Position numbers and translations under genes: made by a program | Notes under the pieces: generated by a model | Told to the model about the DNA's origin: nothing | The model's database searches: none | The model's input: only the letters and a program-made list of their open reading frames with translations | Shown here: positions 7 through 37,881 of the stretch, piece by piece | Position numbering within the stretch: position 1 is the stretch's first letter | Layout: every line of letters starts with the position of its first letter | Source of the DNA: a virus | UHGV virus genome: UHGV-0081762 | DNA: 37,921 nt | Direction: 5' to 3' (one strand)

Positions 7-82
7 GCCGATATAGCTCAGTTGGTAGAGCAGCGCATTCGTAATGCGAAGGTCGGAGGTTCGACTCCTCTTATCGGCACCA
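7..82 (+). tRNA. thrW: tRNA-Thr (anticodon CGU), thrW-like; 3' portion from about position 37 is the prophage-side att copy
   Basis: Cloverleaf readable by eye: acceptor GCCGATA/TATCGGC, D-arm GCTC..GAGC, anticodon loop TTCGTAA (CGT), T-loop TTCGACT, CCA at 80-82. Confidence 0.85.
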
Positions 83-100
83 TTTAAATCAATAAGTTAC
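37..100. repeat. attL direct repeat (tRNA 3' half plus 18 bp downstream)
   Basis: attcgtaatgcgaaggtcgGaggttcgactcctCttatcggcaccatttaaatcaataagttac matches 37818-37881 with 2 mismatches. Confidence 0.85.
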
Positions 101-1257
101 CTCACATTTAAGTAAACCACGTTCTCCTCTTGTGCCGTATTTGTGCCATTGCGACTTATAATCGCATCGATTTTGCTCGCGTGCTCGGTGAGATGCCCGG
201 CTGAAAGGTGAGCGTATCTTTGAACCATTTCGAGAGTTTCCCATCCCCCCATCTCTTTAAGTGCAAGAAGAGAGACTCCGGACTGAACCAGCCAGCTTGC
301 CCAGGTGTGTCTCAGGTCATGGAATCGGAAGTTGCTAATGCCTGCCCGCTTTAACGCTCCCTTCCATGCTTTGTTGCTATCGGTTCTCATCTTCCTTACC
401 GCAGCTGTTTTTGTTCCGTCGCTTCGGTAGGCAGGTTTGGTGTGGACAAATACCCATCTCTTATGGAGCCCCTGCTGTTTTCTTAATATCTGGCATGCGG
501 TTTCGTTAAGAGGAACTCCGATCGCATTGCCAGCTTTTGTTTCATCAGGGTGCATCCATGCCATTTTCTTATCCAGATCGACCTGTGACCACTCAAGGTC
601 TGTAACGTTGGAACGGCGAAGGCCTGTAGTTATTGCGAACATGACCACAGGGAAGAAATGAGGAGCTATTTCTGCAAACAGGCGCTTCGATTCCTCTTCT
701 GTAAGCCATCTAATGCGTCCATTCTTAACGCGTGGTGTTGATATTTTGGGAGCCCTGTCAAGCCATCCCCATTCAACAGCCATATTGAGAATAGCGCGAA
801 GTATTGCCAGATGTCGCGTCTTCGTTCCTTTGCTTGCCAGCTTTGGTTTATACTCCGGCACTGGCTTGCCAAGCCGCAAACACCTGTCCCGGCTCATTTC
901 CCAGTTCAGGCGATGGCGGCGGTTTTCCATCCCGTCTACCGCCTCCATTATTTTTTCTGTTGTTATGTCAGAGAGAATGGTTTCTCTGAAGTGCAACATC
1001 CAGAACGATATAATGCTCTTGTCATCATCAATGGACTTCTTATCCGATTTCTCACGCAGCCACCGTATGCAGGCTTCCTTGAATAGCTTTTTCGGCGATT
1101 CCCCGAGATTTTTTACTCTCCACGCTTCTGCTTTCAGACGATCGTGAAGTTCTTGCGCTTGCCTTTTGTCCGATGTTTCAAGAGAGCGTCTAACTCTTGA
1201 TCCATCTGGCGCGACGAAATCGCAGTGCCACGTGCCACCGCGTAGTTTGATTGACAT
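97..1257 (-). CDS. int: Tyrosine integrase (P22/lambda Int family)
   Basis: 386-aa ORF adjacent to tRNA; C-terminal HDLRHTWAS and LEMVQRYAHL motifs typical of tyrosine recombinase catalytic domain. Confidence 0.9.
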   Translation of the reverse strand: MSIKLRGGTWHCDFVAPDGSRVRRSLETSDKRQAQELHDRLKAEAWRVKNLGESPKKLFKEACIRWLREKSDKKSIDDDKSIISFWMLHFRETILSDITTEKIMEAVDGMENRRHRLNWEMSRDRCLRLGKPVPEYKPKLASKGTKTRHLAILRAILNMAVEWGWLDRAPKISTPRVKNGRIRWLTEEESKRLFAEIAPHFFPVVMFAITTGLRRSNVTDLEWSQVDLDKKMAWMHPDETKAGNAIGVPLNETACQILRKQQGLHKRWVFVHTKPAYRSDGTKTAAVRKMRTDSNKAWKGALKRAGISNFRFHDLRHTWASWLVQSGVSLLALKEMGGWETLEMVQRYAHLSAGHLTEHASKIDAIISRNGTNTAQEENVVYLNVR

Positions 1258-18234: not shown

Positions 18235-18309
18235 GGGTCAGTCGTATAAAGGTCATTACGGAAGGCTGTTAACCTTCTTATCGTGGTTCGAGTCCACGCT
18301 GTCCCGCCA
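18235..18309 (+). tRNA. tRNA-like gene, probable anticodon GUU (Asn); one acceptor-stem and one D-stem mismatch
   Basis: Hand-folded: acceptor GGGTCAG/CTGTCCC, anticodon stem GAAGG/CCTTC with loop CTGTTAA, T-arm CGTGG-TTCGAGT-CCACG, GCCA end. Confidence 0.45.
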
Positions 18310-18314
18310 AATAT

Positions 18315-18390
18315 GCTGGTTTAGCTCCAATGGTAGAGCAGTCGCCTTGTAAGCGAATGGGTAGCGGTTCAAGTCCGTTAACCAGCACCA
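18315..18390 (+). tRNA. tRNA, probable anticodon UGU (Thr)
   Basis: Hand-folded: acceptor GCTGGTT/AACCAGC, D-arm GCTC-CAATGGTA-GAGC, anticodon loop CTTGTAA, T-loop TTCAAGT, ACCA end. Confidence 0.6.
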
Positions 18391-34266: not shown

Positions 34267-34430
34267 CTTTGCAAACACCAGAAATGTGCAAAAACCAAAT
34301 ATATAGAACGCAATATTCAACAGATCTTTTTGCATAGACTCATCTCATAGTTAACAAATCATAACTTACATTAATGCAATGCCGGGCAAGTTGCATCTTG
34401 TTCCGCATTGCTACGTCTGGAGAAAATTAA

Positions 34431-36797
34431 ATGACAGACATTACAGCCAATGTTGTAGTGAGTATGCCTTCGCAACTTTTCACTATGGCGCGTTCTTTTA
34501 AAGCAGTAGCCAACGGCAAAATTTATATCGGAAAAATTGACACTGACCCGGTAAGTCCAGAAAACCAGATTCAGGTTTATGTAGAGAACGAAGACGGCTC
34601 TCATGTTCCTGTTTCGCAACCAATCATCATTAACGCTGCTGGATATCCGGTATATAACGGGCAGATTGCCAAATTCGTAACTGTGCAAGGCCATTCTATG
34701 GCTGTATATGATGCATATGGCACTCAGCAGTTTTATTTTCCAAATGTATTAAAATACGATCCTGATCAACTTAGGGAAGAGATTTTTTCTGACCGTATGC
34801 TGCTAATTACGCCACAGCATTATGGGGCGAAAGGTGACGGTGTTAACGATGATACGGTGGCATTTATTGCAGCAGCAAATGCTCTTGGAGATGGTGGAAA
34901 GTTATATATTCCAACTGGAACATATAATTTAATTGGACCAGTTAATATACCACCAGTGAATATGTGTGGCGATGGACAGGGTAAAACGGTTATTGTGTTT
35001 GATAATACCACATCACCAAAAGATGGATTTGTTTTCGCTGCACCAACTAAGCATGATGTTGAATTTGGTTTAAGTCACCTTACAATTAAAAGCAAAGGCG
35101 GGAATGGCGCTAATGCCATATATACCCCAAGAGGTGTCGGGCTTAATCATCTAAGGCCAAAACCAACATTTAGATTTTTATCTTTCTGTTCTGAGACTGC
35201 AAATATTGATTCTGATGAATTCGCACAGAAGTACGGTTGGGAATGGTCTTTTAACTGTGGTGATAGTTGGCAGTTCACAATCGAACGCATTGATGCTGTT
35301 GGATGTTATCAGATAGCCAAAAGTTATAATGAACAGTTCCTTGATGGATTCATTCGCACCGCTCCAGAAGAAGGTATTTTATCCATGCGTGTGAGTGATA
35401 TCACAACGCATAACGTTGCCAATTTTTTTGAAATTAAGCAGAAGACATATTTCAATCTTACCAATGTCGATGTTGCTAGATCCCTAAACGGTGTTTATGA
35501 TGCTCAGGATAGAGTGTTCGAATCAAATCGCTATGCGTATGGTGAGTCTATATGGACAAACGTTATCATTAATAGCCAGCTTCACCCTATTAATCTTGAT
35601 AACAGATTTCTTTTGATTGCTAATGGACTAGCCATACATAGAGCAGGAGGAGGATATGACCACGGAAATGAATGGGTAGGAATTAGACTCATCAGACCAA
35701 GAGTGTGCACCATTAATGGATTGGAGATTAGCAGTGCATCAGGTTATACGACGACTAAAAAAGGAATAATTATAGATGGTGGCGATGCAAACAACTTCAT
35801 TAATGTAAGTTTTGGTACATTGGATATTGGAGCTCAGATAGGAGTAACATCATCAATACATGGAGCAAATCAGGCGACAAACTTTTCCAATATTAGCATT
35901 AATGCTAATGTCACAACATTACTTAACATACAAAACGCACGTGGTTTTAATTGCAGCCAGTATACTGCATCTCCTCTCTACACTCTTGCCAATTTCATGG
36001 TCAATGATGACAAAGTAAAAAACACATTTACACTTACAAATATTGATGGCAAAAATAATTACACTGATAACTCTATTTATCTTTATAATCAGGAAGCATC
36101 AGAAGATACCAAAAGATGGAGGATAGATACTCGTACCGGATACACACTATCCACTCAGAAAGACAATGGTGCACAAGGTAATAACGCTATTATTATTCGT
36201 CGCAGTGGAATAATTGTAGACTCTATAGAATTACGCACAAAAAACGATTCTGGCGGATATCTTCTTCATACATCACCTGAAACTCATTTTTCTGGCCTTA
36301 TAAAACCAACTGTTGATAATGTTAACTCAAACGGAACATCAGCATTTCGATGGTCACAGGTATACGCTGGTACTGGCAGTATCAACACGTCGAATGAAGA
36401 GCTGAAATTGCGTATTGAGGCTGACGAGAAAACAACAGAATCAGAGCGTCTTGCTGCGCTTGAAATAAAGAAAAATATCTGGAGGTTTAAATTTAAAGAT
36501 GCAGTAAAGATCAAGAGTGATGGCGCTCGGATTCATTTCGGTGTTGGTGCACAAACTGTAGGTAATATTCTCAGAAAATACGGTCTTGACCCTAATAACT
36601 ATGCGTTCTGGTGTTATGATGAATGGGATGATATTTATGCTCCAGAGGTATTAATTAGGAGTGTTAAAAACAATGAAACAGGAGAGTGGTACGACGAGGA
36701 ATATTACACAGGAAGGCAGGTTATTATTAAACCTGCTGGTTATCAGTATGGTATCAGATACGAGGAACTTCTGATGTTTATTCTTATGTTTATTTAA
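34431..36797 (+). CDS. Tailspike: P22-like N-terminal head-binding domain, pectate-lyase-like beta-helix, C-terminal S74-type intramolecular chaperone
   Basis: N-terminus [40 protein letters not shown]...KYDPDQ matches P22 gp9; [17 protein letters not shown] motif; C-terminal [10 protein letters not shown]...GIRYEEL. Confidence 0.85.
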
Positions 36798-36800
36798 AAT

Positions 36801-36820
36801 ATAGCGCAGGGATGCGCTAT
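36801..36820. terminator. Bidirectional hairpin between convergent tailspike and acetyltransferase genes
   Basis: Perfect inverted repeat atagcgc-aggga... gcgctat. Confidence 0.5.
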
Positions 36821-37488
36821 TCAACAATTTCACCGGATGGAAGAATTGTAAATCTCTTATAAGATGCCTTCTTTTTATCTTTTACAGCATTAAACTGCTC
36901 TAAAAAAGTAGTCGGTGTCCTTGTATCAATCCCAATAAATGAGCTTAAATCATATTCCCACCATTGGCTATCCAGTAACTCTTTGATGATTGATTCCTCA
37001 AATCTGTACCCTAGGTGTTTTGCAGAAACGCCACCTACGATTGAATATGGCTCGACATTTTTGGTGACAATAGCGCCAGCAGCAATAACAGCGCCAGTAC
37101 CAATAGTTATACCTCGCCTGATAACCGCATTTGCACCTATCCATACGTCATGACCAATTCTTGGTATACCATGCTTCTGTTGAGAGAGGTCGCGTTGCAT
37201 TCCTATACCATCAGGGATTTTAAAACCATTTTTTGAGCCAAAGAAAAAAGGATGCGTAGAAAAATACCCAGTTTCATGCTCGCCAAGGCCAATTTTTACT
37301 CCTGGAGCAACTGAACAAAATCTACCCATCGTAAAGCCGCCGAGCATACAATTAGCGCCAAAGTAGGAGAATGCTCCAACATTTATTGGGGCAACAACAA
37401 GACCTGAAGCATGAAAAAAACATTGCTCCTCGAAGCTAACTTTTGCTTGTGGAGTCATCTGAACGCTTAACATTGCATCAATCACCAT
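36817..37488 (-). CDS. Hexapeptide-repeat acetyltransferase, XAT family (CatB/Vat-like)
   Basis: [45 protein letters not shown] and [16 protein letters not shown] align with CatB-type chloramphenicol acetyltransferase as recalled. Confidence 0.7.
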
Positions 37489-37817
37489 ATCTTAAACACA
37501 AACTTTGACAAGCTAACATATTAATCATGAACGGAAAACCATAAAACAACGAGACGTGCGTCTGGTGACAGATTCCTGCATCGCAGTTAAAGCAGAATTA
37601 CCTATGAGACAAAACTAAGGTACACAAAGCTTTGCACTGGATTGCAAGGCTTTGTGCTCTTCTATGCTGGGTGGCTACATGTTTGAAGATCGTTGTGCCG
37701 TATTTGTGACATACACATGACAACATCATGCATCAACTTTCTGTTTGTGCCATCAACTATTGCTTGGTGAATGCGGTTAATGCTTGCTAAAACAGATAGT
37801 TATGATTGGTTCTACAG

Positions 37818-37881
37818 ATTCGTAATGCGAAGGTCGTAGGTTCGACTCCTATTATCGGCACCATTTAAATCAATAAGTTAC
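37818..37881. repeat. attR direct repeat containing displaced native 3' half of tRNA-Thr (ends CCA at 37866)
   Basis: attcgtaatgcgaaggtcgTaggttcgactcctAttatcggcaccatttaaatcaataagttac; no matching tRNA 5' half upstream. Confidence 0.85.

Follow-up and report, generated by a model that had tools for sequence, protein, structure and literature searches.

A P22/CUS-3-like prophage tailspike with a predicted S74-type chaperone and a probable K107-like group 2 capsule receptor in Escherichia coli

Modular tailspikes, in which a conserved virion anchor is combined with an exchanged receptor-binding domain, are textbook knowledge in the biology of P22-like phages. The spikes of P22 (gp9), Sf6 (gp14) and HK620 (gp9) follow a common plan of anchor, linker and right-handed beta-helix trimer, recognise O-antigen as their receptor and end in a beta-sandwich or an interdigitated C-terminus, not in a cleaved S74 chaperone. 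A different solution is found in CUS-3, the K1-specific prophage of Escherichia coli RS218, the receptor of which is capsule and not O-antigen, and probably likewise for the spike described here. The latter is encoded in UHGV-0081762, a viral genome of 37,921 nucleotides (nt) that was analysed over its whole length and is hereafter called the window. Our analysis of this gene and its neighbourhood makes it fairly probable that the protein is a self-cleaved spike of the P22/CUS-3-like kind, that its beta-helix cuts a K107-like group 2 capsule rather than O-antigen, and that an acetyltransferase encoded next to it modifies the same capsule.

The tailspike precursor gene occupies positions 34431..36797 on the plus strand, exactly where an earlier note on this DNA, made from the letters alone, had placed it; it starts with ATG, encodes 788 amino acids (aa) before the stop codon and closes the virion module, downstream of the genes for the ejection proteins. 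The identical protein in RefSeq (WP_186186917.1) is named 'phage tailspike protein', the gene itself is identical in E. coli AH21A060, and copies of at least 98.6% identity are present in three further complete genomes. The head-binding (virion anchor) domain, aa 1-113 (34431..34769, plus strand), matches the PF09008 model over its full length with E=8.9e-67 and is the part shared with P22 gp9, Sf6 gp14 and HK620 gp9 (73-88%). Its best solved relative is Sf6 gp14 (7SG7, E=1.7e-64), followed by P22 gp9 (E about 1e-50), with identities by Foldseek of ~88% and ~73%, respectively. The earlier description of this N-terminus as nearly P22 gp9 is thus loosely right, the anchor being by its sequence nearer to the type of Sf6, HK620 and CUS-3 than to P22 gp9. 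At the DNA level the gene resembles other Lederbergvirus tailspikes only up to nt 314-342, and sequence similarity to the spikes of P22, Sf6 and HK620 is absent past about residue 120. Both observations agree with the earlier note, which had considered the remainder of the protein unrelated to the P22 endorhamnosidase and its receptor specificity horizontally exchanged, a reading that is supported. The remainder is AT-rich, as had also been remarked, with a GC content of 0.38 in the receptor-binding part and 0.375 in the C-terminal domain versus 0.505 in the other structural genes; the head-binding part is low too (0.41). No tandem repeats of note were found in or near the gene.

The receptor-binding and putative depolymerase domain spans aa ~125-601 (34803..36233, plus strand) and is predicted to form a right-handed parallel beta-helix. 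Its first coil contains an 11-residue motif at aa 132-142 (34824..34856, plus strand), which the earlier note had read as pectate-lyase-like and which lies within a match to PF12708, a pectate-lyase-like family, at residues 130-204 (E=1.6e-9, above the cut-off). This N-terminal coil bears the G-x-GDG..DDT motif of PF12708 type, G132 being invariant across the family alignment, and relatives of 860 aa are named 'glycosyl hydrolase family 28-related' in RefSeq. An AlphaFold2 model of the monomer, computed with a 24-sequence alignment and having a mean pLDDT (predicted local distance difference test) of 76, confirms the right-handed beta-helix fold over aa ~125-600 of the part suggested earlier for structure prediction, residues 120-788; pLDDT exceeds 90 over 130-510, and an alpha/beta domain follows at the C-terminus. 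The structural neighbours of the beta-helix retrieved by Foldseek are a mix of lyases, hydrolases and epimerases at 7-16% identity, the nearest being mostly depolymerases. Nine acidic residues, namely D278, D288, D305, E334, D347, D357, D360, E364 and E372, are invariant across homologues of 34-81% identity. Neither Pfam nor the solved structures returned a GH58 or sialidase match for the tailspike.

Beyond the beta-helix, the protein continues with a stalk at aa 602-653 (36234..36389, plus strand), which is probably a triple beta-helix formed only in the trimer. The family End_tail_spike (PF12219) matches residues 621-653 weakly and below threshold (E=0.0019), and the stalk can be aligned with the stretches that precede the cleavage site in 3GW6, 4UW8 and 7Y5S. 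Residues 616-655 have pLDDT below 50 in the monomer model, as expected because such a stalk folds only as a trimer. The remaining part, aa 654-788 (36390..36794, plus strand), was identified by phmmer and Foldseek as an intramolecular chaperone domain of S74 type, in support of the S74-like C-terminus proposed in the earlier note. Searches with the C-terminal 188 residues matched 7Y5S (E=1.2e-19), the T5 pb1 chaperone 4UW8 (1.4e-14) and the chaperone of the K1F endosialidase endoNF, 3GW6 (1.3e-10). Foldseek aligned the segment with 3GW6 and 4UW8 at probability 1.00 and E about 1e-7, with low TM-scores, and precomputed matches to PF13884 (Peptidase_S74) are carried by many members of the tailspike family. 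A predicted autoproteolytic dyad is formed by Ser654 (36390-36392) and Lys659 (36405-36407), both on the plus strand: the stretch INTSNEELK stands in register with IVTANGERK of 3GW6, which is the S911A mutant with K916, and with INTADARLK of 4UW8, where the serine is likewise replaced by alanine. The serine is present in 20 of the 24 aligned family members and the lysine in 21, two of the others having no such domain and two being divergent. The two segments singled out in the earlier note, the ten residues at 654-663 and GIRYEEL at 774-780, are both present. By homology we infer that the chain would be cut just before Ser654, leaving a mature spike of ~653 aa.

Which polysaccharide the beta-helix may recognise is suggested by the distribution of the spike among its hosts. 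Strain AH21A060, which carries the identical gene, possesses a kps locus of group 2 in which region 2 comprises two genes, and we used this 4.6-kilobase (kb) region as query in a survey of 5,426 genomes. It was found in only 22 of them, always with at least 99.7% identity, and all ten genomes with the P22-type tailspike fall among these 22 (hypergeometric P about 1e-25). The other 12, to which ST131 strain 2822 and S103EC belong, have no P22-type prophage. The prophages that carry the tailspike sit at different att sites (bio, thrW and torT), and their hosts differ in O-type and come from blood, chicken meat, river water and a wild bird; the prophages were therefore acquired independently and the link with kps is not clonal. 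The receptor is thus most likely a specific group 2 (kps) capsule, judging from this genomic association. The earlier note had left the target as an unknown surface polysaccharide; a surface polysaccharide remains the supported target, to which a candidate, the K107-like capsule, can now be added.

The two serotype-specific genes of AH21A060 region 2 (L017:3629-8246) encode proteins of 1169 and 329 aa. The larger is homologous to the ribofuranosyltransferase/phosphatase (HAD) part of Hib Bcs3 (E=2.8e-28), while a search of the Protein Data Bank (PDB) with residues 1-424 of this polymerase found no relative and did not confirm homology to the GT140 domain of KrkA. The smaller matches alpha/beta-hydrolase and TPR domains weakly and below threshold, in positions as in the catalogued protein K107_9, and may be an esterase or an O-acetyltransferase belonging to the locus itself. 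In the kTYPr catalogue, type K107 (group 2A) has K107_10, of 1169 aa with a HAD domain at 450-661, and K107_9, of 329 aa with an alpha/beta-hydrolase domain at 21-144 and TPR at 241-329; K107_10 is 25-28% identical to the Rib/Kdo polymerases of K16 and K74, and K107, a previously unknown type defined in 2026, was reported by the kTYPr authors to be positively associated with invasiveness (PMC13171606). The distance from kpsM to kpsF is 14,254 base pairs (bp) in AH21A060 versus 14,255 bp in the K107 reference locus, which lies at NZ_JAYMNE010000021.1:75644-89898 in assembly GCF_035831355. By open reading frame (ORF) lengths, domains and locus length alone, the AH21A060 locus is probably K107, with a polymer of the Rib/Kdo family. 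A capsule with ribosyl-ribitol-phosphate, as in K18, K22 and K100, had been suggested by the Bcs3 homology, but neither region-2 gene shows a nucleotidyltransferase domain, so that CDP-ribitol synthase appears to be absent and this candidate was rejected. So was the Kaptive type KL112, which is frequent in ST131 but has an atypical architecture, unlike that of AH21A060. The study of KrkA mentions an undocumented KrkA-like capsule in O16:H5-ST131 (PMC12887879), its sameness with the AH21A060 locus being not confirmed. Our literature search retrieved no paper linking the K107 capsule type to any phage.

Convergent with the tailspike gene lies a gene for a hexapeptide O-acetyltransferase of the Vat/CatB class (XAT), at 36817..37488 on the minus strand. 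NCBIfam families of Vat/CatB match its product with E about 1e-28, far below the equivalog (resistance-gene) cut-offs, and its relatives in the PDB are Vat/CatB enzymes (E=1e-20 to 1e-26), NeuO following at E=9e-5. Given this class and the lack of the poly-psi heptanucleotide repeat, we rejected orthology with NeuO and regard the protein as an analogue; of note, the copy of neuO in CUS-3 is itself out of frame. Between the two convergent genes an 8-bp-stem hairpin (36801..36820) has the look of a terminator, likely shared by both. The acetyltransferase is present in exactly ten E. coli genomes, which are the same ten that have the P22-type tailspike. Among the viral contigs that run past the spike stop codon, five of six have an acetyltransferase in the same position: it is 99-100% identical in L022, L027 and L028, the spike of L027 being the 860-aa form, and 58% identical in L025 and L026, where it stands beside a receptor domain of 72% identity with a different N-terminus; in L023 no acetyltransferase was found. 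The pairing is thus kept across backbones and across sequence divergence, which indicates that tailspike and acetyltransferase function together as one module, probably a mobile one. Two parallels, the siaK1-neuO pair of CUS-3 and the K13 locus, the own capsule acetyltransferase of which is described as 'vatD'-like (PMC12887879), suggest by analogy that the enzyme probably O-acetylates the receptor glycan in lysogens and is likely a gene of lysogenic conversion. A distant blastn search with the acetyltransferase did not reach the 'vatD' of K13 and retrieved only CatB-related chromosomal genes of E. coli.

The receptor and chaperone module (aa ~125-788) recurs behind other adaptors. One alternative carrier is the 860-aa form of E. 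coli prophages; metagenomic proteins of 41-79% identity bear N-termini of PF18668, PF03906 (T7) or PF12571 type before the module. Inside the beta-helix, sliding identity sharply delimits an allelic cassette at aa 341-620 (35451..36290, plus strand), of which the window has allele 1 whereas A10, GF43 and AR_0085 carry allele 2. The alleles have the same length and near-identical flanks and share ~58% of DNA and ~60% of protein sequence, mismatches per 60 nt rising from 0-8 to 16-30 within nt 1021-1860 of the gene. The two are found in hosts that share one kps region 2, and the allele does not follow the subtypes with 100% versus 99.7% identity in kps. Some K107-like hosts contain two or three copies of the receptor domain, GF4 (NZ_CP172217.1) having it in three places and 2018-10-1CC (NZ_AP021894.1) being another example. 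In NRZ14408, a chromosomal 860-aa form (NZ_LT599825.1) coexists with a second copy, of P22 type, on a 41-kb record of its own (NZ_LT599830.1), perhaps a phage genome that is unplaced or extrachromosomal.

O-antigen is the target of the majority of Lederbergvirus tailspikes characterised so far (PMC10408124, PMC11990801), and one might regard the present protein as an ordinary spike of this kind, directed like those of P22, Sf6 and HK620 to a single E. coli O-serogroup. Host AH21A060 is indeed O16, and fold searches show a likeness of the beta-helix to the enzymes of Sf6, HK620 and CBA120 that cleave O-antigen as endoglycosidases. However, the identical protein WP_186186917.1 occurs both in the O16 host AH21A060 and in the O21 host TUM9803, hence a serogroup-specific O-antigen receptor is unlikely, and allele 2 is found in a host of the O17/O44/O73/O77/O106 family (A10). 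The tailspike of Bas106, which is experimentally O16-dependent (PMC11990801), shares with it only the anchor domain, and the perfect association of the P22-type copies with one kps region 2 points away from O-antigen, in line with the proposal of Pas et al. that receptor domains spanning serogroups target K antigens (PMC10408124). We therefore rejected O-antigen specificity as highly improbable. The kps link could also be indirect, due to the pheV island, a common niche or lineage, the true receptor being another glycan or factor such as enterobacterial common antigen (ECA), colanic acid or a product encoded on the island. The flanks of the pheV island are similar between hosts, the spike matches PHROG 8280, labelled 'colanic acid degradation', and strain AR_0085 (NZ_CP029741.1), which has a K1-type region 2 with a polysialyltransferase, nevertheless carries an intact 860-aa, non-P22 spike with a 100% identical allele-2 cassette. 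Yet ECA and colanic acid are universal and do not explain a domain present in only ~0.3% of genomes, nor the restriction of P22-type copies to one rare kps type; lineage is no explanation given the differing O-types and att sites of the hosts. The PHROG label is a propagated annotation, attached also to the O16-dependent spike of Bas106, and was not used. As to AR_0085, its KpsE has the same protein accession as that of AH21A060, which would fit a replacement of region 2 after lysogeny. Region 2 of kps is known as a hot spot for recombination (PMC13171598, PMC12488582), and a capsule switch after lysogeny is thus a plausible account of this exception. Overall, we judge a receptor other than the capsule to be rather unlikely.

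The beta-helix might instead bind its glycan without catalysis, as an adhesin-type spike, considering that no catalytic residues can be assigned and that beta-helix adhesins without enzymatic activity, such as PfbA, are among its best structural matches. The many acidic residues that stay invariant among distant homologues and the predominance of depolymerases among the nearest structural neighbours speak for an enzyme. Moreover, a podovirus with a tailspike as its sole receptor-binding protein normally tunnels through capsule enzymatically, as do P22, K1F and CUS-3; we find a spike devoid of activity quite improbable. A capsule-cleaving, self-processed spike, which is the interpretation we prefer, must itself be set against a number of points that weigh in the opposite direction. 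The evidence for the receptor is genomic association, the kps locus of the host lies outside the window, and region 2 might not be all that the 22 genomes have in common, the surrounding pheV island being one candidate. The K107 assignment was made by ORF lengths, domains and locus length only. Besides the intact spike in the K1-type strain AR_0085, two further carriers of the 860-aa form lack a K107-like region 2, one of the copies being disrupted by IS4. Regarding the protein, PF13884 matches residues 654-718 with E=0.0019 and 18.9 bits, short of the gathering score of 22; the structural model is only moderate in the C-terminal domain (pLDDT 50-87) and poor at 616-655; and fold searches with the model do not separate hydrolase from lyase. 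Finally, relatives of the acetyltransferase are also found at other chromosomal places in E. coli, O127:H6 strains among them, and its target could be another glycan.

Taken together, the data are consistent with the following sequence of events. The spike would be synthesised as a precursor of 788 aa, the C-terminal domain of which (654-788) would, by homology, trimerise and nucleate the folding of the stalk and the beta-helix; the Ser654/Lys659 dyad would then cut before Ser654, freeing a chaperone of ~15 kDa and leaving the mature spike. Its N-terminal domain (1-113) would dock the trimer on the tail hub, and the beta-helix (~125-600) would bind and cleave the surface polysaccharide, most likely the group 2 (kps) capsule catalogued as K107, a polymer of the Rib/Kdo family, so that the virion may reach the outer membrane. 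The product of the convergent gene would probably O-acetylate the capsule glycan in lysogens, like NeuO of CUS-3 does for K1. As a possible but still doubtful extension, the locus may be a mobile module that both infects and converts K107 hosts, with the first K107 depolymerase and the second case after NeuO of prophage-encoded O-acetylation of a group 2 capsule, the cassette alleles reflecting adaptation to modified versus unmodified capsule. We know of no structure, serum or phage for the K107 capsule, and the spike offers a specific and testable candidate enzyme for this type, for which an association with bloodstream or invasive isolates was reported. A depolymerase of this kind could be used in capsule typing, could help to solve the polysaccharide structure, or could become a component of anti-virulence agents or engineered phages. 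To our knowledge, capsule O-acetylation driven by prophages has so far been described only for K1, and the linked acetyltransferase suggests that the phenomenon may be more general, which bears on unresolved K serotypes whose sole difference is an acetyl group not encoded in the kps locus.

The window is a complete P22/CUS-3-like (Lederbergvirus) prophage at thrW, extending from attL to attR. The former is the intact thrW gene for tRNA-Thr (CGT) at 7..82 on the plus strand (ARAGORN), adjoined by the integrase ORF (97-1257, minus strand). The latter, at 37806..37881 on the plus strand, consists of a partial and slightly divergent copy of the tRNA-Thr 3' end plus a 30-nt exact repeat of the attL flank, this being the longest substring shared by the two sites (30 nt, at 71 and 37852). 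The P22-type virion module, with portal, coat, gp4/gp10/gp26 and ejection proteins according to the ORF map and the RefSeq annotation of the identical locus, ends in the tailspike, and its genes are ~95% identical in DNA to those of CUS-3, phiv205-1 and Sf101. A spacer of 164 nt (34267-34430) without an immI (arc/mnt/ant) region separates the gp16-like ejection gene from the tailspike; in the allele-2 prophages of A10 and GF43, genes for Arc and an antirepressor lie at this place. Two further tRNA genes, tRNA-Asn (GTT) and tRNA-Thr (TGT), are encoded at 18235-18390 (plus strand), between the early/regulatory and the lysis/late regions. A perfect-looking hairpin with a 14-bp stem (37623-37656, plus strand) is present in the 320-nt AT-rich spacer between the start of the acetyltransferase gene and attR.

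Among phages, the closest relative of the receptor module is the tailspike of the T7-like Escherichia phage PSK1 (PP541512), with 54% identity over 97% of residues 116-788; our literature search found nothing on the receptor of PSK1. This relative differs in having a T7-type N-terminal adaptor, a length of 900 aa and no acetyltransferase gene after it, and PSK1 is a lytic phage. The chaperones of the K1F endosialidase and T5 pb1 (3GW6, 4UW8) are homologous to the C-terminal domain, with Ser-x4-Lys in register and the motifs HFG..AQ and YD.W in common; their upstream functional domains differ from that of the present spike, for which autocleavage is predicted from sequence. The nearest system as a whole is CUS-3, the virion backbone of which shows ~95% DNA identity across 76% of the structural module, the anchor being shared with 89% DNA identity over nt 1-338. 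Both its spike, SiaK1, and the one described here end in a C-terminal S74 chaperone, and in both prophages a hexapeptide-family O-acetyltransferase is encoded directly downstream of the tailspike at the prophage end. The two differ in the enzyme domain, which is a GH58 endosialidase in CUS-3 and a pectate-lyase-like beta-helix here, SiaK1 outside the anchor being alignable only over aa ~511-784 with 26% identity (396-669 of the 673-aa fragment 116-788). They differ also in the acetyltransferase, the phase-variable NeuO in CUS-3 versus a convergent Vat/CatB (XAT) enzyme here, and in the capsule, K1 versus a K107-like candidate. The combination of a P22-like spike with an S74 chaperone is therefore already known, CUS-3 being its direct precedent, while what the window adds is a candidate receptor for its spike.

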